Shown here piece by piece: positions 1-32,980 of a stretch of 64,000 nucleotides of DNA. The notes beneath the pieces are model-generated. The model saw only the letters and a program-made list of their open reading frames with translations. It searched no databases and was not told the DNA's origin. Position numbers and translations under genes: made by a program. How positions within the stretch are numbered: position 1 is the stretch's first letter; every line of letters starts with the position of its first letter. The stretch is from Candidatus Harrisonbacteria bacterium (GTDB lineage Bacteria; Patescibacteriota; Minisyncoccia; UBA6257; 1-14-0-10-44-23), in NCBI GenBank assembly GCA_023255625.1, contig JAHFLF010000003.1:2105-66104 (forward strand). The letters are read 5' to 3'.

Positions 1-492
1 CCGCGCTTTGCAGGCAAGCGGCTCTCTAATGCTCTGGCAATCCTAGCCATTCACCAACTAAAAAAACTAGAACGGTTTAACACGCATCGTCAAAAAACCG
101 CCGCACTATATCAGGAACTTCTTAGCCCTCTCTTTGTCTCCCACCAACTAACTAGCCAACTAGCTAATTTACCCGCCGCGGCGGGCCGACTAACTGATAA
201 GCCCATTTGGCTACGCTATACTATCTGGACTGACCACGCTGATCGAGTAAAGACGGAGTGCGCAAAACAAGGCATACTTTCGGGCGACTGGTATGATACC
301 CCAATCGCGCCGCGCGGCGTCAGCTATGAAAGAATCGGCTACAAACTTGGCAGCTGTCCGGTCGCAGAAAAAATAGCGGCGCGAACTATCAATCTGCCAA
401 CTGATATTCATATTTCAGAAAACGACGCGCAAAAAATCTGTAATATCATAACCACATTCTATGGAAACAGCAATACACCCACTAAACGATAA
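1..492 (+). CDS. DegT/DnrJ/EryC1/StrS-family aminotransferase, C-terminal part (5' end lies outside the window)
   Basis: Frame 1 is open from nt 1 to the TAA at 490-492. The translation ...WYDTPIAPRGVSYERIGYKLGSCPVAEKIAARTINLPT... matches the C-terminal region of sugar aminotransferases. It contains an in-frame QLTSQLANL segment encoded by the CAACTAACTAGCCAAC repeat. Confidence 0.55.
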   Translation, partial: PRFAGKRLSNALAILAIHQLKKLERFNTHRQKTAALYQELLSPLFVSHQLTSQLANLPAAAGRLTDKPIWLRYTIWTDHADRVKTECAKQGILSGDWYDTPIAPRGVSYERIGYKLGSCPVAEKIAARTINLPTDIHISENDAQKICNIITTFYGNSNTPTKR

Positions 493-1489
493 AAAAATCT
501 GGGACGATTTTGTCGGCGGCGTGCAGCCCAACACCTTTTTGCACTCCTGGCAGTGGGGTGAGTTCAATCAGGCGACCCAGCATGAGATACACCGTTTTGG
601 TATTTATGGAGGCGAATCCCTCCTCGCCGTCGCCCTAATATTATATGTTCGCGCTCGCCGCGGTCATTTTCTTTTCTGCCCGCACGGACCTATCTTCAAA
701 AACGATGTCGACGCGCCAGAAGTCATGGCCGCGCTCACGGACCGACTCGTAGATCTCGCTAAAGAAAAAAAGTGTGTACTGATCCGCATCAGCCCGCTGC
801 TGCCACCAACCAAACAGAACGATGAATTATTTTTCCAGCTCGGCTACCGCAACGCGCCAATCCACATGGCCCATCCAGAGCTCGGCTGGATTCTTGATCT
901 CACGGCGACCGAAGACAAGCTGCTTGCCGGCATGCGCAAAACCACGCGTTATTCGATCAAAAAAGCCGAGAAGGACGGAGTCACGGTGACAATGAGCACG
1001 GACAGTAAAGATGTCGAAACTTTCTGGCAGGTTTACCAGACCACTTTCGCTAGGCAGCACTTCACTCCTTTTTCTAAAGATTATCTGCGCGCTGAATTCG
1101 AAACATTCGCGCGGGATAACAATGCCGCGCTGTTCTTCGCGCATTACAAAGGAGATGTCACCGCCACCGCCCTGATCATTTTCGATGAACACAGTGCTTA
1201 TTACCACCACGCCGCCACAACCCAGAAACACGCCGGCCTCACTGATGCCCAGCTGCTGCAATGGCACATTATTCAAGAAGCAAAGCGCCGCGGCTGCTCA
1301 CAATACAACTTCTGGGGGGTAGTACCCGAGGACGGCAAAAGGCACCCCTGGACCGGTCTTTCGATCTTCAAGCGCGGCTTTGGCGGGCGCGAAGAGGCGT
1401 ATGTCCACGCCAAAGACCTAGTTCTCTCGCCACGATACTGGCTAACATATACAATTGAGATGACTAGGCGCTGGAAACGCCGACTTTAA
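461..1489 (+). CDS. FemAB-family peptidoglycan bridge-formation (aminoacyltransferase) protein
   Basis: 342 aa. Segments GIYGGESLLAVALILYVRARRGHFLFCPHGPIF and AHYKGDVTATALIIFDEHSAYYHHAATTQ..NFWGV resemble FemX/FemA/MurM GNAT-fold proteins. It overlaps the DegT stop by 32 nt. Confidence 0.65.
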   Translation: METAIHPLNDKKIWDDFVGGVQPNTFLHSWQWGEFNQATQHEIHRFGIYGGESLLAVALILYVRARRGHFLFCPHGPIFKNDVDAPEVMAALTDRLVDLAKEKKCVLIRISPLLPPTKQNDELFFQLGYRNAPIHMAHPELGWILDLTATEDKLLAGMRKTTRYSIKKAEKDGVTVTMSTDSKDVETFWQVYQTTFARQHFTPFSKDYLRAEFETFARDNNAALFFAHYKGDVTATALIIFDEHSAYYHHAATTQKHAGLTDAQLLQWHIIQEAKRRGCSQYNFWGVVPEDGKRHPWTGLSIFKRGFGGREEAYVHAKDLVLSPRYWLTYTIEMTRRWKRRL

Positions 1490-1492
1490 AAA

Positions 1493-2281
1493 ATGAAACC
1501 TAAATCTCAATCGCAACGAAAATTTTTCCGACGGATCCGTTGGTATGCAATTATTGGCGGCGTAATACTGCTTGTCTTGCTGCTTGCGTTATTAGTTGTT
1601 AGATCACCATTTTTTAAGATAAATGAAATGATTGTCGTCGGCGTACCGTCAGAACTGCAGACAAAAATTATTGCCGAGCTGACGATCAACATTCTTCGCA
1701 TTCCGCGTTCTGCAATACTTGGGCCCGATAATTATTTTAGCTGGCCGGAAAAATTTCCATATACCGCCGATGAGGCAACGATGATTTCTATCAAAAAAGA
1801 CCTTTTTGACCGAAAGATTACTTTGACCGTAACGCCGCGCCAGCGATATGCGGTCTGGTGTCAGGGGCAACCGGAGGAATCCTTAAATTGTTTCTGGATT
1901 GATCAACTCGGAGTTATTTTTGAATCAGCGCCAATTGCAGATGGGCAATTAGTCCGGACGATTTATTCTGCGAGTCCAATTGGCCGCCCACTAACCGGGA
2001 CGCCTATATTAGCTCAAGAGATTTTTTCCGTAATTAAAAAAACGCTCGATGGATTATCTTCACTAGATATCGGTCTAGAAAAAATTGAATACAAGCAATC
2101 GCTACAGGAATTGCATCTGATAACCTCTGGCGGCACATTGCTCATGATCAGCACCCGCTTTGACCCCTCACCAACTGTTTTGCCGTCAATTCGCCGGCTT
2201 AGCTCTAACCCCGGGTTAGATAAATTAACTTATATAAATTTGACCGTCGAGAATCGGGCGTATGTGAAGTACCGGCAATAG
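1493..2281 (+). CDS. FtsQ/DivIB-like cell division protein (basic N-terminus, one TM, POTRA-like region)
   Basis: 262 aa. Basic cytoplasmic N-terminus, a single TM helix (AIIGGVILLVLLLALLVV), then SPFFKINEMIVVGVP typical of the FtsQ POTRA start. It starts 3 nt after the FemAB-like stop. Confidence 0.4.
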   Translation: MKPKSQSQRKFFRRIRWYAIIGGVILLVLLLALLVVRSPFFKINEMIVVGVPSELQTKIIAELTINILRIPRSAILGPDNYFSWPEKFPYTADEATMISIKKDLFDRKITLTVTPRQRYAVWCQGQPEESLNCFWIDQLGVIFESAPIADGQLVRTIYSASPIGRPLTGTPILAQEIFSVIKKTLDGLSSLDIGLEKIEYKQSLQELHLITSGGTLLMISTRFDPSPTVLPSIRRLSSNPGLDKLTYINLTVENRAYVKYRQ

Positions 2282-2365
2282 TTAATTAGTTAGCTGGTTA
2301 GTTTGTTAGTTAGCAGAAACTCAACCCACCAACTAACTAGCTAACCAAGTAACGAACTAACCATG
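2281..2365. repeat. Imperfect hairpin array of TTAGTTAG / CTAACTAA units (member of the CAACTAACTAGC repeat family)
   Basis: gttaattagttagctggttagtttgttagttagc ... caccaactaactagctaaccaagtaacgaactaacc. The two arms are reverse complements built from TTAGTT units, and every frame contains TAG/TAA. It follows the FtsQ-like stop. Confidence 0.6.
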
Positions 2366-2803: not shown

Positions 2804-2824
2804 AATAGGTATTCTTCATTCAGA

Positions 2825-7518: not shown

Positions 7519-7622
7519 TTTTCAATTCTCAATTTCTAGTTTCTAAACAATTTCCAATTTAAAAATTCAGAAATTAAAACATTGTTTGGAAATTGAAAAT
7601 TATAAATTATAAATTAATGAAC
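7519..7622. repeat. AT-rich ~100-bp repeat cassette, copy A (family shared with 57325-57435 and the 23S helix-25 insert)
   Basis: ttttcaattctcaatttctagtttctaaacaatttccaatttaaaaattcagaaattaaaacattgtttggaaattgaaaattataaattataaatt. Internal palindrome AAACAAT..ATTGTTT. A TTGAAA ... A/T-rich stretch sits just before the downstream ATG, so it is probably a promoter. Confidence 0.6.
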
Positions 7623-7624
7623 CT

Positions 7625-10566: not shown

Positions 10567-11817
10567 CTACAGATAATCCAGCGGATTCAATGTCAGACCG
10601 ATTGGCACCAAGCCCGCGCCAGCGATTGCGGTTAATTTGACCGTTGAACCAAGATAAACCCCAAAGTGAAGGTGTGCGCCAAAAGCATAGCCCGTTTTCC
10701 CGGAATAGCCAATAATGTCTCCCCGCTTGACTAAATCACCCGTTTTCACTTGCTGGCGGGAAAGGTGGCCGTACAAAGTAGCTAAACCGTTATCATGTTT
10801 CAGTACAATGTAACGACCGTATTGCAGTTTACCGTTATTTCCGGCTGCAAAAACAGTTCCATCATCTGCTGCTAATACTGGCGTCCCGATCGGAATACCA
10901 AAATCAATACCGTTATGAAAACAGGTTTTTTTATACAATCGACAAGCATCCGGAGTTTTTCCGTAACCTTGAGTCATTGTTCCGCTGGCAATCGGTTTAC
11001 TAAAAACTCCGGGCCGTTTGAGTGGCAGATTACTCGTTCCGTATTTATCTCGCAACTGCTGCTCAATGTCTGCGATGTCATCGCTAATTTGCTGCTGTTG
11101 TTTTTGCAGCTCGTCAACAATCTTCTGATAATTTGCCTCACTCTTTTTTGTATCTGCGAGCAACTTTTGCTTATCAGCAAGCTGATCCTCGGCAATCGCT
11201 TTTCGTGCCTTCAGAGTCTCTGCCTCTCTTTGTGCGGACTGCTTTTTATCTGATTGCTGATTAAGCTGGCCGGAAAGTTGGCTCTTGAGCTGCCTAAGCT
11301 GGTTAACTTGTTCAAGCAGGCCGACATTAAAATCTTGGATAGACTGTGTTTCCGCTAAAACCTCGGATAGCGTTTTATCACTCAAAAACAAAAATAACAA
11401 ACCCTCATCGCTTCGGTCCTGATATTCCCGGAGCAATGTTGCAACGGCTCCCTGTTTGAGTAAAATAGATTGTTCACTTTGCGTAATCTGTCCACTAATC
11501 GATTCGATTTCCAGTCCCAATTTATCAACCGTCAGCTGACTAACTTGAATACCGAGATTTACCTTCTTGACATTATCATCAATGCGACTCACCTCTTGTT
11601 TGAGAGTTTTGCCCTGCGCCGCAACATCTAATAACTGAATCTGGGTACTTTGCAGCTGTTTGGCAACCTCGTCAAGTTGTTTGGCTTTCTGATCGATAGC
11701 AAACTGCAGATCTTCCTGGGTTGCAGATAGTGCCGACAGCGGAATAGCAAAAATAAAAACTGCCAGGCATGCTGCGAATGCTCTGTTTAGATAGTGTAAA
11801 AAATAATTTCTGGACAT
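10567..11817 (-). CDS. M23-family metallopeptidase with an N-terminal coiled coil (EnvC/LytM-like murein hydrolase or activator)
   Basis: Signal peptide, a long Q/E/K-rich coiled coil, and a C-terminal HNGIDFG...YGHLS...GAHLHFGV M23 motif set. Confidence 0.7.
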   Translation of the reverse strand: MSRNYFLHYLNRAFAACLAVFIFAIPLSALSATQEDLQFAIDQKAKQLDEVAKQLQSTQIQLLDVAAQGKTLKQEVSRIDDNVKKVNLGIQVSQLTVDKLGLEIESISGQITQSEQSILLKQGAVATLLREYQDRSDEGLLFLFLSDKTLSEVLAETQSIQDFNVGLLEQVNQLRQLKSQLSGQLNQQSDKKQSAQREAETLKARKAIAEDQLADKQKLLADTKKSEANYQKIVDELQKQQQQISDDIADIEQQLRDKYGTSNLPLKRPGVFSKPIASGTMTQGYGKTPDACRLYKKTCFHNGIDFGIPIGTPVLAADDGTVFAAGNNGKLQYGRYIVLKHDNGLATLYGHLSRQQVKTGDLVKRGDIIGYSGKTGYAFGAHLHFGVYLGSTVKLTAIAGAGLVPIGLTLNPLDYL

Positions 11818-11832
11818 GTTCTATACTTTTTC

Positions 11833-13365
11833 CTAAGCGACCGCAAGTTTTTGTAGCGCAATTTTGAGACGGCGAAGCGACTCATGTTTACCAAGTGCAA
11901 CAAGAATTTCAACCGGCGGTGGCGAATTCTCCTTGCCGGAAACAGCGACTCGAAGTGGCCACAGCACATCTCCCTTACCAAATTGTTCAGCAACTTTCAT
12001 AATCTTTGGCTCTAGAGATTCCTTCGTAAAAATCTGATCTGGTAATTCCTGCAGTAAATCAAAACAATACTGTAAATTAGTTTTGGCTGCGGCCGCATTA
12101 GATTTTTTCCAGACAAGCACGCTAGCAGCATATTCCGGTAACTCAAAGAAAAACCCGGACAGTTCTTGAAAATCTGCAAGTGTTACCATCCTTTCCTGCA
12201 CTAACGGAATAGCGAGAGCCAAGGATTCTTTGCTCCAACTAGGATCGCAAAATCCCCCCTCAACTAAGCAACTGACTAACCGACTAACTGATAACTGTTT
12301 GATGTAATGCGCATTAAAAAAATCCAGTTTTTGTTTATCAAATTTTGCTCCGCCTTTTTGCACACGGTCAAGCGAGAACAATTCTACCATTTCTTCAAAA
12401 GACAATATCTCTCGGCTACCAACCGGCCGGACCTCGCCCCGTACCGTGCTTTGCTCTGGTGCGGGGTGCCAGCCGATCAGCACCAAAAAGTTGATCAGCG
12501 CCTCGGGCAGGTAGCCGGCCTCGCGGTACTCGCGCACAGTTGTTCCCCCATCGCGCTTACTCATCTTCCCCTTCCCAGTGGCGCTTAAAATCAGTGGTAG
12601 GTGGGCGTACTGCGGCGAGCCAAAGCCAAGCGCCTGCGCAAGCGCAATCTGTTTGGGAGTGTTTGCCAGATGTTCCTCGCCGCGGATAACATGAGAAATC
12701 TGCATCTCGTGATCATCAATAACCACGGCAAAATTATACAGCGGCTCACTCATTGACTTTGCAATGACAATGTCGCCGCTAAGCGCATTATCAAATTCCA
12801 CCTCTCCGCGAATCAAGTCGGTCATCCCTATCTTTTCAGGAACAACCTTGAAGCGGATAACGCTCTCTTTACCCTCCGCCAGACTCTTCGCTATGTCTAG
12901 TTCCGTATATGAACGACATTTGCCGCTGTACTTCGGCACTTGGCCAGCTGACTCCTGACTCTGGCGTCTTGCTTCAAGCTCCTCTTTTGTACAAAAACAA
13001 TAGTACGCTTTGTGTTCACTAAGCAGTTGCTGCAAGTACTTTGCATACAGTTCTAGCCGGGCTTTTTGCCGGTACGGCCCGAATTCACCTTTTTCGGAAC
13101 CATCGGGTTTACCCGCCGTGGCGGGCATAACTCCTTCATCAAACACAATGCCCGCCCAATGAAAACTATTCAGGATGTCCTGCTCAAATTCTTTGGTTGA
13201 TCGCGCGTCATCGGTATCCTCAATTCGCAAAACAGCAGTTCCACCATGCTGCTTTGCGAATAAAATATTATAGAGTGCCGTGCGCACGCCGCCAATATGC
13301 AAACTGCCCGTTGGCGACGGGGCCATGCGAACACGAATTTTTTTATCTTTTTTAGATATCATCAT
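11833..13365 (-). CDS. gltX: glutamyl-tRNA synthetase
   Basis: RVRMAPSPTGSLHIGGVRTALYN (HIGH) and KMSKRDGG (KMSKS). Start placed at the MMISKK ATG pair (13360-13365); the tracked upstream start is a TTG. It carries an in-frame QLSVSRLVSCLVEG segment encoded by the TTAGTTAG repeat (12255-12300). Confidence 0.85.
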   Translation of the reverse strand: MMISKKDKKIRVRMAPSPTGSLHIGGVRTALYNILFAKQHGGTAVLRIEDTDDARSTKEFEQDILNSFHWAGIVFDEGVMPATAGKPDGSEKGEFGPYRQKARLELYAKYLQQLLSEHKAYYCFCTKEELEARRQSQESAGQVPKYSGKCRSYTELDIAKSLAEGKESVIRFKVVPEKIGMTDLIRGEVEFDNALSGDIVIAKSMSEPLYNFAVVIDDHEMQISHVIRGEEHLANTPKQIALAQALGFGSPQYAHLPLILSATGKGKMSKRDGGTTVREYREAGYLPEALINFLVLIGWHPAPEQSTVRGEVRPVGSREILSFEEMVELFSLDRVQKGGAKFDKQKLDFFNAHYIKQLSVSRLVSCLVEGGFCDPSWSKESLALAIPLVQERMVTLADFQELSGFFFELPEYAASVLVWKKSNAAAAKTNLQYCFDLLQELPDQIFTKESLEPKIMKVAEQFGKGDVLWPLRVAVSGKENSPPPVEILVALGKHESLRRLKIALQKLAVA

Positions 13366-13454
13366 GTCTTTGTTTGTCATTGCGAGGTACTCCGCGGCAA
13401 TCCATCTTTTATCTTTTTCCTGGATTGCTTCGCGTACTCGCAATGACAGACTAA

Positions 13455-15762: not shown

Positions 15763-16875
15763 TCATTTATTTGTGTATTTTGAAACATTTACCACGATCC
15801 CCATCATCGTCATAAACACCGCCAAACTTGTGCCACCGTAACTAATAAACGGCAGGGGTGTACCGGTCAGCGGCAGCAGTCCGGTCATTGCTCCAACATT
15901 CACAAAAACCTGTATTGTGATAATTGAGCCAAAGCCAATCAGAAGTAATCGCCCAAAAGGATCCGGGGTATGGCGGGCAAGCATTAATATGCGTAAAACG
16001 AGAAAAAGAAAAAGGCCAAGCAGGATGACCGAGCCAACAAAACCAAATTCCTCCCCCGCTACAGCAAAAATAGAATCTCCGATCGGTTCCGGTAAACGAT
16101 ATTTAACGGTTGATTGGCCATATCCCACTCCGAAAATACCGCCTGCACCAATTGCAGTTTTGGCCTGTAGCAGATGATAGCCGCTCCCCTGCGCATCAGC
16201 TTCCGGGTTTAAAAATGACAATACGCGCTGCGCACGATAAGGCGTAACCGCAACGATAAGCGCAAGAGAAAAAAGGCCGGCCGCAATAATCGCGCCAAGA
16301 TAGCGCAACTTCGCGCCGCTGACAAAATACATAATTAGGGCAACCAAAATCAGCATTGCAACCGGGCTGGTGCTGTGCTGTAAAATCAAGATTCCGGAAA
16401 CAACTGTCAGGACAACTGCAAATGGTAAAAATCCCTGCCGCAGTGATTGCTGGGCATGATCTTTAAATGAGAGCCAGCTGGCCAGATAAATCAGCAATGT
16501 GATTTTCAATAATTCCGCCGGCTGAAAGGAAAATGGCCCAAGCGCCAGCCAGCGGGTTGCTCCTTTTGCCGTGAGCCCAAGCGGAGTAAATACCAGTAGC
16601 AAACCAATAATGCTCAAAACCAGCAGCCAAACGCTCAAAGAGCGTTTCACATAAGTACCATAGAAAAGTTTAGATGCACACCAAAAACCGATTAAACCCA
16701 GAGAAAGTCCGTAATAAATTTGGTGTTTCAAATAGTAATAGCTATCACCATATTGAGTGGCGGCTAGATTAGAAGAACTGCTGGCCAGAATTACGAAACC
16801 AAAAAGAATTAGTAATCCAAGGCAAAAAATTACAACAATATCTGGCGCGTGCTGCTTACGAGAAATAGCAAACAT
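15763..16875 (-). CDS. ftsW: SEDS-family peptidoglycan glycosyltransferase FtsW/RodA
   Basis: Ten TM segments. The C-terminal motif LPLTGTPLPFISYGGTSL is typical of SEDS proteins. It sits next to murG. Confidence 0.8.
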   Translation of the reverse strand: MFAISRKQHAPDIVVIFCLGLLILFGFVILASSSSNLAATQYGDSYYYLKHQIYYGLSLGLIGFWCASKLFYGTYVKRSLSVWLLVLSIIGLLLVFTPLGLTAKGATRWLALGPFSFQPAELLKITLLIYLASWLSFKDHAQQSLRQGFLPFAVVLTVVSGILILQHSTSPVAMLILVALIMYFVSGAKLRYLGAIIAAGLFSLALIVAVTPYRAQRVLSFLNPEADAQGSGYHLLQAKTAIGAGGIFGVGYGQSTVKYRLPEPIGDSIFAVAGEEFGFVGSVILLGLFLFLVLRILMLARHTPDPFGRLLLIGFGSIITIQVFVNVGAMTGLLPLTGTPLPFISYGGTSLAVFMTMMGIVVNVSKYTNK

Positions 16876-19240: not shown

Positions 19241-19596
19241 ACAGTGCTTGAATGATCAGTCTAGTATGTCATCTTTCAACGAGAACCCATATATATGGCG
19301 CTCGTTGAACGACAACATCATTAGCGTCCCGCCAAAGGCGGGACTAGTAGTTAGTTGCGATGGCATATTAGTACGTCTCGGCTACACACCTTACGGTGCT
19401 TACACCTAACGCCTATCAACGTAGTAGTCTTCTACGAACCATCAAACATCCTTTCGAATATTCTGGTATCTAATCCTGGAGTTGGCTTCGTGCTTAGATG
19501 CTTTCAGCGCTTATCCATTCCGAACGTAGCTACCCGGCACGTCTACTTGGTAGTAGAGCCGGTACACCAGCGGTTCGTTCAATCCGGTCCTCTCGT

Positions 19597-20117
19597 CACG
19601 ATATTCTTGCGAATACTTTTCCCCTCTCACGAGGAGCGTAGACTATATCTTGACCCACCCTAAATCGCTTTTGCGACCGGGTAAAGGGTCTCGGCATCTT
19701 ACAAATGCAGCCCTGTCTGCGAAACATATCGCAAACTTTCTGGAACTACATAAGTCCGCCCGTTATCCCGCTGTTAGCGGAACCGGAACAAGTCGTTACG
19801 GGGTCAAGCGCGAAATACGCGCAAGTTGAAAGTTTATCAAGTTTATAAAGTTATAAAGTAGAAACGGAAACCCGCATCCACTTGATGAACTTTACAAACT
19901 TTCAACTTTACAAACTTGCGTGCTTTGCACGCCGACTTCCCACGGTATTGTCTTATTACTTTTCTGGTCCTCAAGCTTGTACGCCTTTGGCGTATAAATT
20001 GTACCACGCGTTTGAGGACTAACTCTCGCTTGGTTATCAACAGACCAGACCGTCATAAGATTCCACCGTTATTAGCCGAATTTTCATCACGCATTACTGC
20101 ATGAAGTAGCAAACTTT
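19597..20117 (-). ncRNA. group I intron A (ORF-less, ~521 nt) in the 23S sarcin-ricin loop region (between U2656 and A2657, E. coli numbering, inferred)
   Basis: P7/P9.0 core AAGATATAGTCTACGC on the minus strand. Removing 19597-20117 reconstitutes CCTAGT|ACGAGAGGACCGG. It contains a copy of the AAGTT composite palindrome (19806-19933). Confidence 0.6.
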
Positions 20118-20315
20118 ACTAGGATCGACTCTCCTCCGATACCATACGCCTGCAACAGATAGAGACCAACCTGTCTCACGACGGTTTGAACCCAGCTCAC
20201 GTGCCCTTTTAATTGGCGAACAGACAAACGCTTGGGAGCTTCTTCACCCCCGCGCTAGGGCGAGCCGACATCGAGGTGCCGAGCGTTGCCGTCGATAGGA
20301 ACTCTCGAGCAACAC

Positions 20316-20350
<35 letters not shown>

Positions 20351-20705
20351 TCTTTGTGCTTTCTATAAAGCAACATCGGGTCACTAAGTTCTGCTTTCGC
20401 ATCGGCGCGACTTGTAGGTCTTGCCGTTAAGCCAGCATGTGCCTTTACACGTTCAGCCCGATTTCCATCCGGGCCAAGCTGACCTTAATAAACTCCTCCG
20501 CTACTCTTTAGGCTTGTTGTTAGTTGCATGCATCATTTCTGTGCATCGCTTCATGTCGCCATGAAGGTCAGACTATATCTTCAGCATATCCGGATATGAT
20601 TGCTGTTTGGCGTATAGTCGTTGAGGACTCTCTTATTGAAGCTGAAAGAAGGAGTGAAATAAATAATTAATACATAATAACTACTTCACGTCCACGCGAT
20701 GCGTG

Positions 20706-20781
20706 TGGTGGGCTCTGAAGGACTTAAACCTCCGACCTCCTGGATTTCAACCAGGTGCTCTAGCAGCTGAGCTAAGAGCCC
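20706..20781 (-). ncRNA. tRNA-like structure 1 inside intron B: full cloverleaf with a Phe(GAA) anticodon arm and encoded CCA, but the D/T tertiary invariants are altered
   Basis: Minus strand: GGGCTCT TA GCTC AGCTGCTA GAGC A CCTGG TTGAAAT CCAGG AGGTC GGAGG TTTAAGT CCTTC AGAGCCC A CCA. C19 and U56 replace G19/C56. T-loop is TTTAAGT. Confidence 0.5.
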
Positions 20782-20797
20782 ACTTGTTCGCATTTTT

Positions 20798-20889
20798 TGG
20801 AGCGGGCGAGAGGATTCGAACCTCTACCCTATCGCCGCCAAAGCCCTTGCGGGCTCAAGGGGCTTGCCCTGCCGTTAGACCACGCCCGC
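20798..20889 (-). ncRNA. tRNA-like structure 2 inside intron B: class II-like (long extra arm) with canonical acceptor, D and T arms but an aberrant anticodon region
   Basis: Minus strand: GCGGGCG TG GTC TAACGGCAG GGC A AGCCCCTTGAGCCCGCAAGGGCT ... AGAGG TTCGAAT CCTCT CGCCCGC T CCA. U8, GG in the D-loop and T-loop TTCGAAT are present. No 5-bp stem plus 7-nt anticodon loop can be drawn. A GCAA-tetraloop hairpin AGCCC/GGGCT occupies the region. Confidence 0.4.
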
Positions 20890-21407
20890 TCCGTTACAAC
20901 ATTGCTTGCGATTTTCCTCCTTCTTTCAACTTCAATAAGGTTGCCTGCTGATTGTCCGCATCGATCTTGAATTTTTACCCTTTTCGACAAGAGGTATCAA
21001 GATATGCCCGGATATTCCAGCATATAGCCAAATTTTTTACCGTTAACCCCCATATGCGCAGAGGCACATATATACTTGAGGATAACGCCCCATTAAAACT
21101 GCCCACCAGGCACTGTCCCGCGACGTTTTTGCCGTCGAGGTTAGAATCTAAAATTTTACAGATGGCTGTTTCATTGTTGGATCCATGTCTCCCGAAAGAG
21201 ACACTTCAAATCCTCGCCACTACGCTACGCAGTAAAATCCTAGAGCCAATACCAAGCTACAGTAAAGCTCCCGGGGTCTTTTCGTCTTGCTGCAGGTACC
21301 CAGCGTCTTCACTGGACTCGCATTTTCACCGAGCTCTTCGTTGAGACAGTTCTCCACTCGTTACACGATTCGTGCGCTTCGGAACTTACCCGAAAAGGAA
21401 TTGCGCT

Positions 21408-21956
21408 CACTATTGTTACTATCCGCCAGCTTGCGGACGGATGAATATTTCTATTCACCTCTATGCATTACTGCACAGGTCGGACTATATCTTCATATAT
21501 GCGTTATCAGGCGCATACTGTTCGGCGTGTAGTCTCTACAGGGTCATATTGAAGCTGAAAGAAGGATGCGAAGTGTATCGCTACTCCTTCGTATCCGCGC
21601 GGAAGGCGCGAAAGAGAGGTGACGGGTCTCATGTATTTACCCGCATTGCAATAAAGACTCGTAGTCTTTAATCTTGAGGCAACCGGCTCGCCCCGAATTG
21701 CACTGCAGCCCTTGCGGGTTCTGCAGGAAGCAGCCATACCATCCGAAGGCAACAGGCTCGAGTAGTCTGGTGGACGCTGTGCGCCACTCGAATCTCTTCC
21801 GCCTACATCGGAGCTAACCCTTGCTTCTCACACCCCTCTCATTTTCCTTCTTTCAACTTCAATAGACTTCCCTCGGTATTGTCCAAGACAAAATTTCCTT
21901 TCCTATATTCTTGGATGTTCACCGATATAGCCAAATTTTACTAAGGCAAGCAATTC
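21408..21956 (-). ncRNA. group I intron C (ORF-less, ~549 nt) at 23S helix 69, site L1917 (inferred)
   Basis: P7 3'/P9.0 AAGATATAGTCCGACC plus P9 hairpins GGTGAATAGAAATATTCATCC and TCCGCAAGCTGGCGGA. Removing the intron joins ...TAACTATAATCGTTCTAAGGT|AGCGCAATTCC, which matches the E. coli sequence CUAAGGU|AGCGAAAUUCC. Confidence 0.65.
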
Positions 21957-22004
21957 ACCTTAGAACGATTATAGTTATCGCTGACATTGACGAGGGCTTC
22001 GGGC

Positions 22005-22130
22005 AGTGCGCATGCCCTGCGCACAAGTCGCAAGTTTATCAAGTTCTTCAAGCTCGAAAGTAGAAACCGGAATTCGGCCTTACTTGATAAACTTGATGAA
22101 CTTTTTACTTGACGAACTGTGTGCAGAGCA
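22005..22130. repeat. AAGTT composite palindromic element, copy in the 23S helix 68 region
   Basis: GCGCACAAGTCGCAAGTTTATCAAGTTCTTCAAG ... CTTGATAAACTTGATGAACTTTTTACTTGACGAACTGTGTGC, flanked by small GCGCA..TGCGC hairpins. It replaces about 25 nt of E. coli sequence with about 135 nt. Confidence 0.6.
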
Positions 22131-22261
22131 CACACCCACCGTTAACCTTCTCGCATCGGTCACGTGTCACCCCCTATACATCCTCTTGCGAGTTAGCAGG
22201 GAGTTGTGTTTTTGATAAACAGTCGGCAGAGATACTTTCGCTGCGGCCCCGCGCGCACAGC

Positions 22262-22391
22262 GCGCAAGTCACAAGTTTATCAAGTTCATAAAGTTATAAA
22301 GTAGAAACGGGAATCGCTTCCGGTATTCACTTGATGAACTTTACGAACTTTCAACTTGATGAACTGCGTGCTGCGCACGCCGGGCAGGCCT
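22262..22391. repeat. AAGTT composite palindromic element, copy replacing 23S helix 63; about 85% identical to the copy inside intron A
   Basis: gcgcgcacagcgcgc + caagtcacaagtttatcaagttcataaagttataaagtagaaac...cacttgatgaactttacgaactttcaacttgatgaactg + cgtgctgcgcacgcc. Confidence 0.6.
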
Positions 22392-23595
22392 TATTGCTAA
22401 CTTACGGCCGCTTTTTTGCCGAGTTCCTTAACGAAGATTCACTCGTTCCCCTGAGGATACTCTCCTCACCCACCAGTGTCGGTTTACGGTACGATGCACA
22501 TGTTCTAAACTTAGAAGTTTTTCTTGGAAGGCTATTCTGCTGTATTAGTCTTGGAAAACCAAAACCTTATCGGAACGCGCGCACTACTACATTAAAGTAA
22601 GCTACCCGGATTTACCTGGATAACAGTGCTTATCGTCCTAAACGCCAAACCATTAAGGCGCACAGCTCTATGTCCTCCGTCACTCCATCGCACAAACATG
22701 CGCGGGCCGGAATATTAACCGGCTTCCCATTAGCTACGGTTCTCACCATTGCCTTAGGATCGCCTAACCCGCGGTTGATTGCCATTGCCGCGGAAACCTT
22801 GGATTTTCGGGGTACGCGTTTCTCACGCGTATTGTGGTTACTTGTGCCAACATTCTCTCTTCCAAACGCTCCACGGGCTCTCACGAGTCCCGCTTCACAG
22901 CTATATTCGTCCTTCAACGAATGATTGGAATGCTCTCCTACCGCGCCACCTGATAAATCAAGTGACACCCGCAATTTCGGTACTATGTTTAGCCCCGGTA
23001 CATTTTCGGCGCAGTCGCCCTCGAATAGTGAGTTGTTACACACTCTTTAAAGGATGGCTACCTCTAAGCCAACCTCCTATCTGTCTATGGGAAACTACTA
23101 CCTTTAACACTTAACATAGATTTAGGGACCTTAATTTGCGATCTGGGCTCTTCCCCTCGCGACCATGGAGCTTTGCCCCCACAGTCTAACTAGCTAGACG
23201 TTTTATGTGAGTATTCGGAGTTTAACTGAAATGTCGCCCTTTCGGGCTGTACACCTCAACTAGTAGCTCTACCCCTCACATGATGTCTCTAGCCGCTAGT
23301 CCGAAAACTATTTCGGAGAGAACCAGCTATTACCAAGCTCGATTAGCTTTTCACTTCTTATCCCAAGTCATCCCAGGGTTTTGCACAACCCACGAGTTCG
23401 GTCCTCCATAGGATTTTACTCCTACTTCAACCTGCTCAGGACAAGCTCGCCTTGGCTTCGGGTCTTATGTATGCCGCTTATTGTCGCGCTATTAACACTC
23501 GGTTTCCCTACGCCTCCACCGCCGAAGCGGCTTAGACTAATGCGACACACATAAACTCGTTGGCTCATTCTTCAATAGGCACATAGTCACCCCAC

Positions 23596-23735
23596 GCGCA
23601 CCTCACTGCTGTGACGTGCGCAATTTTCAATTACCAATTTTCAATTTTCAAACAATTTTGAAATTAATCAATTGTTTAGAAATTAGAAATTAGAAATTAG
23701 AAATTGCGCACTCTCACGACAGTGAGATGCGCGCT
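23596..23735. repeat. Insertion in 23S helix 25 region: AT-rich cassette (same family as 7519-7622 and 57325-57435) closed by GC-rich inverted repeats
   Basis: gcgcacctcactgctgtgacgtgcgc | aattttcaattaccaattttcaattttcaaacaattttgaaattaatcaattgtttagaaattagaaattagaaattagaaatt | gcgcactctcacgacagtgagatgcgcgc. Confidence 0.6.
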
Positions 23736-23798
23736 GGGGGCTCCTATTCATTGTAAGCGTACGGTTTCAGGTACTATTTCACCGCCCTTACCGGGCTG

Positions 23799-23839
<41 letters not shown>

Positions 23840-23935
23840 TGAAGTGTATTTAGCCTTACCGGATAGTACCGGTATGTTCCCGCATAGTTTATTTGCCACG
23901 CGGTACTCTAGAAATCTCATATTGCTACAAGACCA

Positions 23936-24195
23936 GTCCTGTATGTCACATATGCCGCGAAATGCGGAAGCATTAAAATTGTCGAGACCGCGACGCGAGT
24001 GGCGAGACATATGGCTATGCCATAAGCTCGACGCTCGCAACAAAGGTATCGACAATTTTAATGCTTTGACGGGCTAATTTTTGCCTGATTCTTTGTTGCT
24101 TGTCGTAGCCATAGCTAAAGCTATTGTCTACTCCGCGCGCCTAGAATCATGCCAAAATTCGCACCGCCGCATTCGTGTCATATGTGACATACAGG
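23936..24195. repeat. ~260-375-nt insertion in 23S domain I (between E. coli positions ~200 and ~460) with nested perfect inverted repeats
   Basis: Outer 17-bp inverted repeat: cctgtatgtcacatatg (23936-23952) / catatgtgacatacagg (24179-24195). Inner 16-bp inverted repeat: gcattaaaattgtcga (23967-23982) / tcgacaattttaatgc (24046-24061). There is an rRNA-length excess of about 375 nt here. Confidence 0.6.
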
Positions 24196-24694
24196 ACAAA
24201 AAACGAGAGTCAGAACTGTTTTCGCATACTGGGCTATCACCATCTTTGGCGCGTCTTTCCAGGCGCTTCTGCTAACAGACTGTTTTTTAACTCTCTTTTT
24301 ACAAATCACGCAGCAGCCGTAAAGCTGCTCCGTGAAAAGTAAAAGTGTTTTTCTCTAAACCCCCAAAAGATTTATTGCTAAATCCCTCGAGTTTGGGCTC
24401 TTCCGTTTTCGCTCGCCGCTACTAACGGAATACAATTTGTATCTTTTCCTCTGGTTACTGAGATGTTTCACTTCACCAGGTTGACGAACGCATCACTTAT
24501 GTATGCGAACTATGTCGGGTTACGACATAAGGTTTCCCCATTCGGAAATCTCCGGATCACAGGTTGCTAACACCTCCCCGAAGCTTATCGCAGCTACGCC
24601 ACGTCCTTCATCGCCACTTCATGCCAAGGCATCCACCGTACGCCCTTTAACGCTCTGACGCATGTCAGAGCTCACTAACCACATAATGCTCAAG

Positions 24695-27583: not shown

Positions 27584-27700
27584 GGTAGGTAGTTAGCTAG
27601 TTAGTTGGTTACTTTGTTAGTTAGTTTAATACGGAAACGCTTTACTGCAAATTTCTTGACTGACTAACCGTCGACCGACTAACTGGCGACTACTCCGTCT
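27584..27700. repeat. TTAGTTAG / CTAACTAG hairpin array in the metG 5' region (member of the CAACTAACTAGC family)
   Basis: ggtaggtagttagctagttagttggttactttgttagttag ... gactgactaaccgtcgaccgactaactgg. Confidence 0.55.
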
Positions 27701-30255: not shown

Positions 30256-31458
30256 TCAGTAGACCAGAAGATCCTGTCCGCTGACCGGACCCGGCGCGTA
30301 CACCGGGTTGCCAGTGTCGGTTCCATGGCCCGTTCCCCATCCGCCGAACTCGATCGGGGCGAGATAGGTTCCGGGATAAGAGTTCGCGAGGATGTCCCCG
30401 AAGAACTCCACATACATGGCCTCGCCTGATTGAGAGGTCGCGCTGTCGAAGAAGCCGCCGCCGAAGTAGTGCGATCCGCTGAAGACGAACGGGATGGTCG
30501 AACTGTACTTCTCACCGTTCACCCAGACCTGCAGGTTCTGCAGCCCCAGCGTGTTCGGCAGGTGGAACCAGAAGTCGAGCTGGTTCAACGACAGCCCCTC
30601 CTGCGACCCCGGGAAGATGTACCAGGCCCCGAGCTTGGCCATGTTCGTGCCCGCCGGGTGCACGATCGGGCCCTCGAAGACCGGATCGCGGATGACTGTA
30701 ACATCCTGCGGTCCGAAGACCGAGATGGTCCGGCGAAGCGCGGTGATGCTCGCGTCCTTCTGGTCGATCTCGACCTGCGCCTGAATGAACTTATCGGCCA
30801 CGGCCCCTCGCTCCTGCTCCCGCTGGTCAGCGAGCTTGGCCATGGCCATCTTCTCCGCGCCGAGCGTGACGATCTGCGTTTCGCGGGCGGCAATTCCTTC
30901 TTGCAGAACACGGATCTGGGCCTCTTTGTCGAGCCGCCCATCATGCTCCATGTCGGCCTCTGTTCGGAGGTCGCCGATCTGCTTCTGGAGCGCCGCGCTC
31001 TCGGTGGCCTTCGCCACCTTGAGATCGGCGAGCTCCTTCCGCAGGGCGAGAATCTGCTCGCCGTCAGTCGGCCGCCGAAGTGCCGGCATCTTGAAGACCG
31101 ACGGCCTCGCGCCGAGCGTGAAGGTCCGGTCGAACGGCGAAGCCGCGTGTTCCAGGTCCACTGCGTGGACCCAGTACCGGCCTCCGACACGCGCCTCCCG
31201 CCAGTTGAAGAACCGTGACGGGCCGACGAAGCGTGGCTGGCGCGGTGCCAGGACGAGCTCGAACCTTCCCTGCTCGTTCTTCTGGAAGATCGAGATGTCC
31301 AGCACGCGCCCCTCGTCCGCGCGCAGCCCGATCGCTCCGGGCACGCCGAGCGTGAGCCCGGAGCGCTCCTCGTCCTGGGCATTCGCCGAAACGGCGAAGC
31401 CCAGACCGATGAACAACGAGACCAGGAACGCCGCAAACGACTTCCGCGAGAAACCCAT
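30256..31458 (-). CDS. GC-rich secreted coiled-coil protein (hypothetical)
   Basis: ATG at 31456-31458 preceded by AGGTGGGGG. Signal peptide MGFSRKSFAAFLVSLFIGLGFAVSANA, a central coiled coil, and a Gly/Tyr-rich C-terminal domain. It sits in a high-GC island with overlapping spurious ORFs. Confidence 0.4.
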   Translation of the reverse strand: MGFSRKSFAAFLVSLFIGLGFAVSANAQDEERSGLTLGVPGAIGLRADEGRVLDISIFQKNEQGRFELVLAPRQPRFVGPSRFFNWREARVGGRYWVHAVDLEHAASPFDRTFTLGARPSVFKMPALRRPTDGEQILALRKELADLKVAKATESAALQKQIGDLRTEADMEHDGRLDKEAQIRVLQEGIAARETQIVTLGAEKMAMAKLADQREQERGAVADKFIQAQVEIDQKDASITALRRTISVFGPQDVTVIRDPVFEGPIVHPAGTNMAKLGAWYIFPGSQEGLSLNQLDFWFHLPNTLGLQNLQVWVNGEKYSSTIPFVFSGSHYFGGGFFDSATSQSGEAMYVEFFGDILANSYPGTYLAPIEFGGWGTGHGTDTGNPVYAPGPVSGQDLLVY

Positions 31459-31564
31459 CCTGCACCCCCACCTGAAAGCCACTGAATTTCTGCAAAAAAC
31501 GACCTCACGTTGAGGTCGCCAGCAGACAAATATGATAGCATTATTGTATTAAAATGTCAAATCT

Positions 31565-31598
31565 CTATGTTACAGCGTACTAGTACGCTGTAACATAG
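31565..31598. repeat. 34-bp perfect palindrome CTATGTTACAGCGTACTAGTACGCTGTAACATAG (copy 1)
   Basis: Read directly. A second copy at 40848-40881 differs only at a symmetric compensating pair (C/G to T/A). Confidence 0.7.
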
Positions 31599-31639
31599 CA
31601 GTAAAATATAAAACATTGCAAAGAATAGCTATATAAAAG

Positions 31640-32980
31640 CTATTCTGACAATTTTGCCAAAATGTATGCCGGTAACTCACTGATTTTTACCCGTTCCTGC
31701 TTCATAGTGTCGCGATCACGAACGGTAACAGTATCAATTTTGGCCTGGTCGCTCCCCTCCTCGCCAAGAGTTTCAAAATCAATAGTTACGCAAAATGGCG
31801 TGCCAATTTCGTCCTGACTGTAGTATCTTTTTCCGACATTTCCCCTATCGTCCCAGGCCACAGTTAGTTGGTTAGTTGGTTGGCTAGTTAGTTGGTTAAA
31901 TACTTCGCGGGCCTTTTCAACTAACGCGGGTTTGTTGGCTAAGAGTGGAAACACGGCAACTTTGTACGGGGCAACCCATTTTGGTAATTTCAAATAGACG
32001 CGATCATTTTCTTTATCTTCTGTAAACGCCTCAAGAAGAGTAACGAGCACGCTGCGGTCAAGACCGAAACTTGGCTCAATCACATACGGATAGATTTTTT
32101 CGTTGGTCTCGGGATCCTGATACGGCGGCTCGGCAAAGTGATTCTTTAAATCAAAATCAGTTCGCGAGGCAAGACCATAAAGCTCTTTCTGGCCAAATGG
32201 ATACTTGTATTCAACATCAATTGTTTTTGCGGAGTAGTGCGCGCGTTCACCGTCAGCAATAGGCACATACACAACATGCTCGTCTTTAACTCCCAAATCT
32301 TTGACCCACTGCTTCATCTGGGTAAGCCAGTAATCAAAATGCTGATCCCACTCGCTGGGTTTTACAAAATATTCAAATTCCATGAGGTCAAACTCACGCT
32401 GGCGGAAGATAAAGTTGCCGGGCGTTATCTCATTGCGAAATGCGCGGCCCTGACTGGCAATACCAAACGGCAACCGCTTACGGCTCGTGTCTAAAACATT
32501 TTTAAAATTAACAAACATCGCCTGGGCAATCTCCGGACGAAGATAGACCGTGCTCGCCTTTTCTTCGGTTGGCCCGAGCGAGGTCTTGAGCATTAGATTG
32601 AAATTCTTTGGCTCGGTGAAACCATCCTTTCCGCTGCATGCCTGGCACGGCTTCGCTGAATCAATTTGATCCGCTCGAAAACGCGCATGACATTTTTTGC
32701 ACTCCACCAGCGGGTCATTGAAAGTCGCCAGGTGGCCACTTTTCTCCCAAACCTTCGGATTCATAATGACAGCCGCATCCAGCCCAACCATGTCATCGCG
32801 ATGCTCCACGAACCGCCTCCACCACTCGTCCTTGATATTTTTCTTAAGCTGCGCCCCAAGCGGCCCGTAATCCCAGGAGTTTGCCAGCCCGCCATAAATT
32901 TCAGAGCCCGGAAATACAAAACCCCGCCGCTTACAGAGCGCAATTACTTTCTCCATCAAATCATCTTTTCCTTGTTCCAT
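31640..32980 (-). CDS. glyQS: glycyl-tRNA synthetase, dimeric class II (alpha2) type
   Basis: MEQGKDDLMEKVIALCKRRGFVFPGSEIYGGLANSWDYGPLG... is typical of the GlyRS alpha2 type. It contains an in-frame FNQLTSQPTNQLTV insert encoded by the CAACTAACTAGC repeat (31860-31905). Confidence 0.85.
   Translation of the reverse strand: MEQGKDDLMEKVIALCKRRGFVFPGSEIYGGLANSWDYGPLGAQLKKNIKDEWWRRFVEHRDDMVGLDAAVIMNPKVWEKSGHLATFNDPLVECKKCHARFRADQIDSAKPCQACSGKDGFTEPKNFNLMLKTSLGPTEEKASTVYLRPEIAQAMFVNFKNVLDTSRKRLPFGIASQGRAFRNEITPGNFIFRQREFDLMEFEYFVKPSEWDQHFDYWLTQMKQWVKDLGVKDEHVVYVPIADGERAHYSAKTIDVEYKYPFGQKELYGLASRTDFDLKNHFAEPPYQDPETNEKIYPYVIEPSFGLDRSVLVTLLEAFTEDKENDRVYLKLPKWVAPYKVAVFPLLANKPALVEKAREVFNQLTSQPTNQLTVAWDDRGNVGKRYYSQDEIGTPFCVTIDFETLGEEGSDQAKIDTVTVRDRDTMKQERVKISELPAYILAKLSE

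Follow-up and report, generated by a model that had tools for sequence, protein, structure and literature searches.

The window, by which we mean the whole stretch of DNA analysed, comprises 64,000 nt of Candidatus Harrisonbacteria bacterium (Patescibacteriota, CPR; GCA_023255625.1, JAHFLF010000003.1, positions 2,105-66,104, forward). An earlier note had described a short repeat in three unrelated housekeeping genes, those of a DegT aminotransferase, GltX and GlyRS (glyQS), and in hairpin arrays after an FtsQ-like gene and in the 5' regions of metG and parB. We find repeat DNA at all six places, with the translations HQLTSQLANL, NQLTSQPTNQLT and QLSVSRLVSCLVEG as quoted there. An exact 17-mer, CCAACTAACTAGCYAAC, occurs four times in the 64-kb window, at 144(+), 2329(+), 27592(-) and 31879(-). 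The assertion that the repeat exceeds background is borne out in the window, where 11 matches to the 17-mer with up to three mismatches are present versus 0.16 expected, and where a scan for tetramer runs returns 8 tracts versus 0.24 in Markov-3 simulations. For coding tracts of equal strength, the corresponding figures are 3 observed versus 0.03 after synonymous-codon shuffling of all CDS. No CTAA-type repeat was found in 80 related CPR loci (1.3 Mb). The CTAA-type tracts are real, and in this Patescibacteria (CPR) genome they form a family of degenerate, short-period repeats specific to the lineage.

The repeat is a degenerate tetramer tract composed of CTAA and its one-transition derivatives (CCAA, CTAG, CTGA and CCGA), with CTAA accounting for 21, CCAA for 9 and CTAG for 5 of about 60 units. 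Tandem periods detected by TRF are 4, 8 and 12 in interrupted tracts (74-84% matches), and the higher-order period is 8 nt (TAAC-N4), or 12 nt in translated copies. Tracts are 30-45 nt long, with 29-47 nt per arm, and the sequences of the coding and intergenic sites, including a tract upstream of DegT, display neither fixed ends, nor a fixed length, nor target-site duplications. The repeat is a tract of variable length and not a discrete element with fixed ends. The G-poor tract carries stop codons in every frame, and the Y position is C in both coding copies (CAA, Gln) and T in both intergenic copies (TAA). Across CPR DNA generally, period-7 and period-8 tracts occur at 1.06 and 0.12 per 10 kb, respectively, versus 0.01-0.19 for periods 5, 6 and 9-11; inside the window, separate heptamer tracts occur at 1.09 per 10 kb.

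The main, regular habitat of the tracts, which the earlier note does not mention, is the few bases before start codons. The G-poor tract adjoins the ATG of DegT, ORF2363, metG and parB, with its end only 0-3 nt away, and in three cases the stop codon of the upstream gene lies inside the tract (2279-2281, 27679-27681 and 1301-1303 of L211). An inverted G/T-rich partner arm is present in 3/4 of these start-codon cases; there, an imperfect 80-100-nt hairpin that spans the interval between stop and start codon can form in the transcript. The three arrays noted earlier do fold as long imperfect hairpins, with stems of at least 25 bp that include many G-U pairs and mismatches. In hairpin 1 (z = -4.7), the G/T-rich 5' arm (2279-2314, +) begins with TAG (2279-2281), the stop of the upstream ORF 1493-2281, while the G-poor 3' arm (2325-2371, +) contains the exact 17-mer and extends into and past the ORF2363 ATG (2363-2365), a start codon backed by the N-termini of homologues. 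In hairpin 2 (z = -2.3), the G-poor arm (27584-27628, -) also contains the exact 17-mer and ends at the metG ATG (27583-27581), and the G-rich 5' arm of the minus-strand transcript (27657-27697, -) holds the stop of an AI-2E-family gene (27681-27679) together with its last codons. Hairpin 3 (61724-61808; z = -2.8/-4.4) has an arm adjoining the parB ATG (61723-61721) and is built from AGCT-N4 octamers, unlike the TAAC-N4 units elsewhere. With a promoter-like site upstream of it at 61850-61822(-), this hairpin probably forms the 5' leader of parB. The fourth tract, just upstream of the DegT start (1290-1333 of L211, outside the window), is absent from the earlier note and has no partner arm.

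The two co-directional spacers contain no promoter or terminator consensus sites. SD-like 4-mers precede only 10/56 ORF starts and a TATAAT-like box lies 6-8 nt ahead of many ATGs; the genome is almost devoid of Shine-Dalgarno sites, and most of its genes look leaderless. At the AI-2E/metG junction, two other loci, L010 (z = -4.6) and L031, have periodic-arm hairpins of other sequence. In low-GC metagenome contigs (group b) that share the same 21-mer, G-poor tracts outnumber G-rich ones 71 to 26 at 16-100 nt upstream of starts, whereas in the 80 CPR relatives the G-poor bias toward starts is weak (20 versus 12). Other hairpin families of this genome recur at unrelated places, both intergenic and inside the 23S rRNA gene, which has similar periodic-arm hairpins at three or four positions (z = -5 to -8).

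The coding copies are single, unstructured arms of 29-38 nt, and the proposal that they represent three in-frame insertions fares differently in each gene. In DegT, a G-poor forward tract with the exact 17-mer core (142-170, +) reads HQLTSQLAN and is followed by a perfect palindrome, CCCGCCGCGGCGGG (172-185), and a second forward piece, CCGACTAACTGATAAG, which together (172-201, +) read PAAAGRLTDK. The region 142-170 is an insertion relative to P0122-P0125, and the protein is ~7-16 residues longer than four homologues. One relative (L204, 61% identical) shares the insert, built there from a different unit: its PINRLTDQPINQ is encoded by 4.5 copies of CCGATTAA, and RLTD is common to both proteins. 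Judged by these alignments, DegT carries a real lineage-specific insert.

In glyQS, the forward tract (31862-31897, -) consists of three 12-nt units reading NQLT SQPT NQLT and includes the exact 17-mer, but the net gain relative to the nearest orthologues is only 4 residues (12 nt), as the first NQLT takes the place of ancestral DQLA-type residues at a helix end. In the AF2 model, residues 366-373 make up a loop ahead of the strand 374-376, and residues 362-365 close a helix. The length of this helix-to-strand loop varies among lineages, and it is lengthened in 25/120 of the nearest homologues. Where DNA is available for the lengthened loops, 7/12 are G-poor and periodic at 7, 8 or 12 nt, with a different unit in each. 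A new point is that this GlyRS loop has gained 7-8-nt repeats, differing in unit, in at least seven lineages of CPR.

The tract in gltX (12260-12297, +; the gene is on the minus strand) reads QLSVSRLVSCLV and is only repeat-like, having two mismatches to the 12-mer CAACTAACTAGC and no 17-mer core. GltX matches solved GluRS structures and 59 CPR orthologues in length, and three orthologues have identical GTT AGT CAG TTR GTN AGT codons at the same site, so that across four genomes the tract shows conservation at its synonymous positions. We therefore reject an insertion here: orthologues carry homologous residues and even the same codons, and the peptide (QLSVSQLVS-type) is ancestral. The idea of a lineage-specific repeat tolerated as peptide in essential enzymes survives for DegT and GlyRS, but not for GltX, and not in the form of a discrete element. 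The remark that the reading frames used avoid TAA and TAG is true, but it reflects survivorship.

Together with the tract upstream of DegT, two further coding copies are additions to the earlier account. The C-terminal tail of ParB, past the dimerisation domain (60786-60888, -), contains two periodic tracts, AATTCTT x4.7 (60792-60824) and CTGACTAACCGACGA x2.3 (60854-60888), the latter reading SSVSQTTVSQ. In ORF2363, a heptamer tract (2528-2564, +; TCGCAAA x4.4) encodes VANRISQSANRLN in a segment missing from most homologues.

Several explanations can be weighed against these observations. The model closest to the earlier note, in which a small palindromic element of the MITE, REPIN or RPE-like kind transposed and was inserted in-frame in housekeeping genes, draws on the identical 17-mer at four loci, the inverted-arm architecture of the hairpins, the recurrence of other hairpin families at unrelated sites including the 23S rRNA gene, the true insert in DegT and the precedent of RPEs for in-frame insertion (PMC10969869). 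The order CCAA-CTAA-CTAG also occurs 4 times versus 0.19 expected when the unit vocabulary is taken into account. An element of this kind is nevertheless improbable given the lack of fixed ends, fixed length and target-site duplications, the internally periodic and degenerate arms, coding copies that are single arms rather than hairpins, the absence of an insertion in gltX and the gain of only 12 nt in GlyRS, and no transposase or RAYT gene is seen among the part of the window's proteins that was scanned. Moreover, relatives have different units at the same DegT and GlyRS sites, which is more readily explained by local expansion than by a single element striking there again and again. If the tracts and hairpins were instead purely neutral, decayed (CTAA)n microsatellites that slip under weak selection and have no role, one would understand why the units are single transitions from CTAA, why period-7 and period-8 tracts are enriched across CPR DNA and why tracts lie in variable loops, tails and rRNA insertions. 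Slippage does not yield inverted arm pairs, however, and neutrality is at odds with the regular span from stop codon to start codon, the presence in other lineages of hairpins at a corresponding gene junction, the strong orientation bias in the group-b contigs and also in a Beggiatoaceae genome, and the synonymous-site conservation of the gltX tract; we regard this possibility as unlikely, if somewhat less so than a mobile element.

The hairpins might also be RNase III-type processing sites that split cistrons or make near-leaderless 5' ends, with the coding copies as by-products. RNase III typically removes the intervening sequences of bacterial 23S genes, and the long imperfect stems (at least 25 bp), the four similar periodic-arm hairpins in the 23S rRNA gene and a genome that looks leaderless-dominated are all compatible with such a function. 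A simple-repeat-dependent 5'-UTR element of H. influenzae is reported to be targeted by RNase III (PMC12721329). The stems here are rich in G-U pairs and mismatches, though, and a partner arm is missing from the tract before DegT, which leaves processing about as improbable as transposition. The window encodes DprA, CPR bacteria are believed to rely on taking up DNA, and the DUS of Neisseria also occurs as inverted pairs and inside genes, all of which would suit an uptake-sequence-like motif that is over-represented for natural transformation, lies between genes in inverted pairs and is accepted within coding DNA. This is very improbable: CAACTAACTAGC has only four exact occurrences in 64 kb (~1 per 16 kb, versus ~1 per kb for DUS/USS) and no copy in an additional 9 kb on the window's right-hand side, and the tracts are degenerate, variable in length and positioned at start codons rather than downstream of genes. 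A DUS/USS assignment, which calls for a fixed 9-12-mer, is rejected on these grounds.

The explanation that we consider probable as a whole is a short-period repeat family that originates by slippage and copying and whose G-poor tract has a role at start codons. Tracts would arise and change length by slippage or tandem duplication, and also by short-patch copying between loci. Against slippage on its own, the same 17-mer at four loci and the recurring hairpin families, intergenic and in the 23S gene, point to dispersal of ready-made copies. Coding copies would survive only in the one open frame, with in-frame TAA changed to CAA, and only at permissive places, namely the DegT insert, the GlyRS helix-strand loop, the ParB tail and the variable segment of ORF2363. 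Because the G-poor strand encodes T, P, Q, N and S, it would be the sense strand in exposed loops. Given the few Shine-Dalgarno sites and the apparent leaderlessness of most genes, the G-poor single-stranded tract may be where ribosomes land or re-initiate on the few genes with a leader or intercistronic spacer, possibly bound by S1 or Csp-type proteins as proposed for TAACTGA repeats, and the inverted arm would keep the tract covered until either the upstream ORF had been translated (coupling) or the stem had been processed. This translational role, drawn by analogy, is the weakest step of the explanation. The orientation rule inside the window concerns only four spacers, any hairpin that fills a spacer must touch both neighbouring genes, and the hairpin would conceal the very tract proposed to recruit ribosomes. 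The synonymous-site conservation of the gltX tract in four genomes is likewise unaccounted for. As a broader and tentative conjecture, which we think doubtful in its full extent, G-poor short-period tracts and hairpins could form a general SD-independent system of translation initiation or coupling in Patescibacteria and in an unrelated low-GC sediment lineage, with the same slippage-prone tracts repeatedly supplying new peptide segments to essential proteins, the GlyRS loop (at least seven lineages, independently) as a hotspot and rRNA helix tips as a third sink.

When compared to known systems, several candidates can be set aside. TIGR arrays have ~36-nt units with edge and loop repeats and two spacers beside a Nop-domain Tas gene (PMC12045711); a TIGR-Tas array is rejected here, as the repeats have a 4/8-nt period and are scattered over separate sites, and the annotated neighbours include no Nop-domain protein. 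Phase-variable simple sequence repeats (contingency loci) consist of perfect tandem units, and changes in their copy number alter the frame or the promoter spacing of non-essential surface genes; they are rejected because the tracts here are interrupted and lie in essential genes (glyQS and gltX), where a frameshift would be lethal. RPEs are in-frame peptide insertions in unrelated metabolic genes that are apparently compatible with the fold (PMC10969869). The tracts here resemble them as in-frame peptides in unrelated genes, but RPEs are discrete elements of ~150 bp in defined families with a conserved encoded peptide, whereas our coding tracts are degenerate and 29-38 nt long, one coding copy involves no insertion and most of the family's regular sites are spacers that precede start codons. 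REP, REPIN and MITE sequences share the dispersed intergenic inverted repeats that form hairpins and the presence of several families per genome; they differ in that the arms here are internally periodic, with no conserved head motif (in REP/REPIN a 5' tetranucleotide), fixed length or target-site duplication seen, and no RAYT (Y1 transposase) or other transposase is found in the subset of the window's proteins that was scanned. Arms of 29-47 nt, variable ends and the lack of flanking duplications do not match a discrete RPE or MITE with conserved ends and terminal inverted repeats. Borg repeats are described as perfect tandem direct repeats of recent formation, which give rise to disordered regions in proteins (PMC9879509). 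They are similar in being fast-evolving, both intergenic and in-frame, and in adding polar, probably disordered segments, but the tracts here are degenerate and come in inverted pairs, and their period is not divisible by three.

The closest relatives are found elsewhere. TAACTGA direct repeats, over-represented and arranged head to tail in sets of at least two copies, occur in marine Beggiatoaceae, some Cyanobacteria and Bacteroidetes (MacGregor 2015, PMC4679880), where 132/170 sets are oriented toward a start codon and the largest class ends 1 nt upstream, SD sites are rare, 14 sets overlap an upstream stop, ~10 lie in ORFs and translational regulation has been proposed (PMC4679880). Both families have a G-poor, stop-rich unit with a common TAAC core, end in forward orientation a few nt from a start codon (0-3 nt here, with no SD-like site between), in some cases overlap the stop of the upstream ORF, and have reverse copies translated in ORFs (LSVISYQ there and QLSVSRLVS here); in the window, such reverse copies are found in gltX and in the tail of parB. 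The period, however, is 7 there and 4/8 here, with units such as CTAACTAG, CCAACTAA and similar, and the TAACTGA heptamer itself is not enriched in the window (8 versus 4.9 expected), with only one partial doublet, TAACTGATAACTG, at 12285 within the gltX tract. Our copies are also mostly inverted pairs forming hairpins, whereas a single inverted repeat is described in that work; forward copies persist in CDS here via TAA-to-CAA changes, and the host is a CPR bacterium. Cyanobacterial STRRs are short-period tandem repeats with possible hairpins between co-transcribed genes such as hupS-hupL (PMC2670836). Intergenic short-period arrays able to form hairpins are common to both, although STRRs have 7-bp units of other sequence versus 4/8 nt in the focal family, and they were not reported at start codons or in loops of essential enzymes. 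The CTAA-type repeats are a variant of a kind known from other bacteria, the TAACTGA/STRR repeats, and what is new relative to these systems is the 4/8 period, the hairpin form and the occurrence in CPR.

The focal repeat is built from degenerate CTAA-type tetramers, and its core CCAACTAACTAGCYAAC occurs exactly at 144 and 2329 on the forward strand and at 27592 and 31879 on the reverse strand. When up to three mismatches are allowed, 11 matches are found versus 0.16 expected, and a scan of the window for CTAA-like tetramer runs recovers 8 tracts versus 0.24 in Markov-3 simulations; the same scan returns no tracts in 80 related CPR loci (1.3 Mb). Among 3-unit words, recurrence is significant only for the specific low-probability word, with a generic test for any 3-unit word recurring at least four times being not significant (P = 0.19). 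The roughly 60 units that lie in register are dominated by CTAA (21), CCAA (9), and CTAG (5), the remainder being other single-transition derivatives, and the periods given by TRF are 4, 8, and 12, with TAAC-N4 as the clearest higher-order unit.

A pure (CTAA)n tract, like its complement, carries stops in all three frames. In the forward coding copies (DegT and GlyRS), CCAA appears as every third unit, exactly where an in-frame TAA would otherwise come, and the sole variable position of the 17-mer core is C (CAA) in both coding copies and T (TAA) in both intergenic ones. The avoidance of TAA/TAG frames that the earlier note described is therefore real, as are the sequences it quoted, all of which lie where it placed them and are correctly translated. 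Open frames are used in the coding copies because survival in a CDS demands it. When synonymous codons are shuffled with all proteins kept, 0.03 coding tracts of such strength are obtained versus 3 observed, and thus the coding copies are features of the DNA rather than by-products of the peptide.

The best matches to the GlyRS, GluRS, and MetRS sequences of the window come from Patescibacteria/CPR (Parcubacteria-type) genomes (60-78% identity). Shine-Dalgarno sites are almost absent, as SD-like 4-mers precede just 10 of 56 ORF starts, and in many genes a TATAAT-like box stands 6-8 nt 5' of the ATG (e.g., 47812-47830, 16410-16430, and 42260-42279), which is the geometry of leaderless mRNAs. 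Taken together, these two features suggest that leaderless mRNAs dominate this genome.

Against this background, the main biology of the repeat is at start codons. Hairpin 1 (2279-2371) starts with the TAG stop of ORF 1493-2281, which was previously described as FtsQ-like and has no Pfam match, and ends over the ATG of the ORF starting at 2363 (ORF2363), a start codon confirmed by N-termini across a 259-member protein family. Hairpin 2 (27584-27697) takes in the stop codon of an AI-2E-family gene and extends to the metG ATG. Hairpin 3 (61724-61808), made of AGCT-N4 units, extends to the parB ATG; with a promoter-like site upstream of it, it is probably the 5' leader of parB. In all three hairpins, the G/T-rich arm is 5' and the G-poor arm is 3', adjoining the start codon, and RNA folding gives z-scores of -4.7, -2.3, and -2.8 for hairpins 1, 2, and 3, respectively. 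A fourth copy sits immediately beyond the left edge of the window as a lone G-poor tract; the TAA stop of a transglutaminase-like gene falls within it, and 3 nt separate its end from the DegT ATG. We find neither a promoter nor a terminator consensus in the two co-directional spacers, and an intrinsic terminator or own promoter is rejected there for this reason.

Within genes, the copies have different histories. Relative to four homologues, the DegT segment SPLFVSHQLTSQLANLPAAAGRLTDKP has 7-16 extra residues, and a relative with 61% identity carries an insert in that position as well, encoded by 4.5 copies of CCGATTAA (PINRLTDQPINQ). The DegT segment is a true insertion that is shared and evolving. 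For GlyRS, comparison with 80 genome-derived orthologues and the 120 nearest database proteins gives a DQLAKNFT-like base state in place of which the window has NQLTSQPTNQLT, with a net gain of 4 residues and three copies of a 12-nt unit. In an AlphaFold model (mean pLDDT of 83), residues 362-365 form the end of helix 351-365, and the loop leading into strand 374-376 spans residues 366-373 (local pLDDT of ~83-88). The loop placement expected in the earlier note thus holds, although part of the tract lies over ancestral residues.

The proposal that the repeat was inserted in-frame into three genes stands for DegT and GlyRS but not for GltX, which shows no length difference relative to the enzymes of T. 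maritima and E. coli, other solved GluRS, or 59 CPR orthologues. The peptide that the tract encodes in GltX (QLPVSQLVSLL, QLSVSQLVSELV) is ancestral. In three other metagenomes, orthologue DNA reads GTT AGT CAG TTR GTN AGT at the same codons, which the closest orthologue (69% identity) lacks. Even with the peptide fixed, the codon choice is improbable (P about 0.0008), and the synonymous positions (GTT AGT ... AGT) are conserved in four genomes whose GluRS are 54-64% identical (window 12260-12297 and comparison loci L206 1047-1090, L207 3137-3156, and L208 7005-7036), which hints that selection may act on the DNA or RNA of the tract itself. On these alignments, the gltX tract is an old, shared, repeat-like stretch and not an insertion, a warning that a repeat-like coding tract need not be one. 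Additional coding tracts, absent from the initial list, are found in the ParB tail past the dimerisation domain (two tracts) and in the variable segment of ORF2363 (a heptamer tract).

Among the 120 nearest homologues, 25 have a lengthened GlyRS loop, and of the 12 lengthened loops with available DNA, 7 are periodic at 7, 8, or 12 nt. These seven all have a G-poor sense strand, and no two share a unit: CCAACTAA in the window, and CCGATTAA, CAACTCAT (four copies), AGCTTCC, CCAATTAC, ACTACTA, and GCTCCAA in comparison loci L212, L213, L214, L012, L014, and L020, respectively. These inserts occupy the helix-strand loop before VAWDD and are independent in at least seven CPR lineages, the window included. 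Around genes, periodic-arm hairpins of unrelated sequence occur at the AI-2E/metG junction in two other lineages, and one relative (L045) has such hairpins on both flanks of glyQS. A period-based scan reveals periodic tracts with non-CTAA units in the 80 CPR loci (L002-L081; 1.3 Mb), where period-7 tracts reach 1.06 per 10 kb versus 0.01-0.19 for periods 5, 6, 9, 10, and 11; period-8 tracts in the window reach 0.78 per 10 kb. The period-7 enrichment suggests that heptamer repeats resembling the cyanobacterial STRR are a general CPR feature. The focal repeat is one case of a general habit in such genomes, in which short-period repeats and their hairpins settle in spacers and rRNA insertions, with single arms turning up in the loops and tails of proteins.

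The window itself has another periodic-arm hairpin family (7519-7624 and 57324-57435; arms CAATTTCYAATTYCTAAACAATTTCCAATTT ... ATTGTTTGRAAATTGA), located in co-directional spacers before ORF 7625 and between dprA and topA. The 23S rRNA gene (19360-24659, reverse strand) is enlarged by insertions to ~5.3 kb versus the 2.9-kb model, and such insertion-swollen 23S genes are common in CPR. Four of its insertions are long hairpins with arms of 7-9-nt tandem repeats (19812-19932, 22020-22112, 22262-22372, and 23612-23716; z = -5 to -8); the one at 23612-23716 is similar to the hairpins in the spacers at 7519 and 57324. The gene also contains a group I intron (20549-21075), within whose span lie two tRNA-like genes (20706-20889, reverse strand; Phe-GAA, 67 bits, and Lys-CTT, 42 bits). 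Elsewhere, a LAGLIDADG-type homing-endonuclease-like ORF (61944-62624, forward strand; Pfam LAGLIDADG_3, E = 3e-5) directly follows tRNA-Leu(CAA), and a 114-bp unit repeated 2.2 times at 100% identity (54995-55243) begins inside the 5' end of tRNA-Ile (54934-55006, reverse strand) and may reflect either duplication at an integration site or an assembly artefact. A near-perfect 34-nt palindrome, CTATGTTACAGYGTACTAGTACRCTGTAACATAG, occurs at about 31566-31600 and about 40868-40902, each copy just downstream of a reverse-strand gene (glyQS and ORF 40966-41349), as a terminator-like repeat family. A small repeat, GTCATTGCGAGGTACTCCGYGGCAATCC, is found at 13372-13454, as one hairpin arm between gltX and murG, and at 59653-59690.

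A metagenome scan with the 21-mer MACCAACTAACTAGCYAACYA matched more than 120 contigs, some of which are eukaryote-like (CTAA)n microsatellites, while most are low-GC (0.30-0.36) sediment contigs. The latter carry many different periodic tracts, at 3.9 per 10 kb for period 7 and 3.5 per 10 kb for period 8, have intergenic regions of 300-750 nt almost full of them (e.g., 273-599, 1611-2209, and 11520-11993 in metagenome contig L107), and share a conserved 40-mer, TTAACYAGYTAACCAGGTAACCAACTAACTAGCTAACTAA, that contains the query. G-poor tracts outnumber G-rich ones 71 to 26 at 16-100 nt upstream of their starts. As the JABUB* records among them come from Atribacteria-dominated hydrate sediments, these contigs are possibly Atribacterota, an assignment made by sample origin only; four of their proteins gave no match in an exact-sequence look-up. 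With so few kinds of unit available, the shared 21-23-mers may have arisen convergently, and we do not claim cross-phylum transfer of one element. A phage link was likewise set aside, with single copies in ordinary sequence of two near-identical viral contigs being treated as chance.

These observations are consistent with a scheme in which tracts would arise by slippage or duplication, plus copying, and a selective filter would leave only open-frame copies at permissive places. Exposed loops would favor G-poor sense strands because these encode T, P, Q, N, and S. Whatever the function, the coding copies show a concrete route by which non-coding simple repeats enter the protein sequence of essential enzymes, and the GlyRS loop, where independent repeats recur, offers a natural experiment on mutation hotspot versus structural tolerance. 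The recurrent GlyRS-loop repeats and the CPR-wide period-7/8 excess are the parts most worth pursuing.

The closest known counterparts are the TAACTGA repeats of Beggiatoaceae (MacGregor 2015, PMC4679880), which have further occurrences in Cyanobacteria and in a few Bacteroidetes. Their sets are mostly forward, with the largest class ending 1 nt 5' of the start codon; Shine-Dalgarno sites are rare, 14 sets overlap the stop codon of the upstream ORF, and about 10 lie within ORFs in reverse orientation (LSVISYQ). Their proposed role is translational, via S1, Csp, or CsrA-type binding (PMC4679880). By analogy, the G-poor tract of the window could be an SD-independent ribosome entry or re-initiation site, with the 5' arm as an occluding or coupling partner or a processing site. 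If functional, the start-proximal tracts would offer a clue to how ribosomes find internal starts in an SD-less, otherwise leaderless CPR genome, and would add a third major bacterial group to the hosts of the unexplained TAACTGA/STRR phenomenon. The geometry is the same and both units have a TAAC core; however, the window tracts lack the TAACTGA heptamer in period-7 arrays that defines the published repeats (PMC4679880), and their hairpin form is new relative to them. The heptamer hairpins of the cyanobacterial STRR between hupS and hupL provide a second precedent (PMC2670836), while Rickettsia palindromic elements provide one for in-frame tolerance, although as discrete elements of about 150 bp they differ from what is seen here (PMC10969869). 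TIGR arrays, with a different unit size and gene context, and a DNA-uptake motif, for which the density is too low, were rejected. The repeat of the window thus works like the TAACTGA/STRR class without being a member of it, and is a new variant, found in a host group that is itself new.
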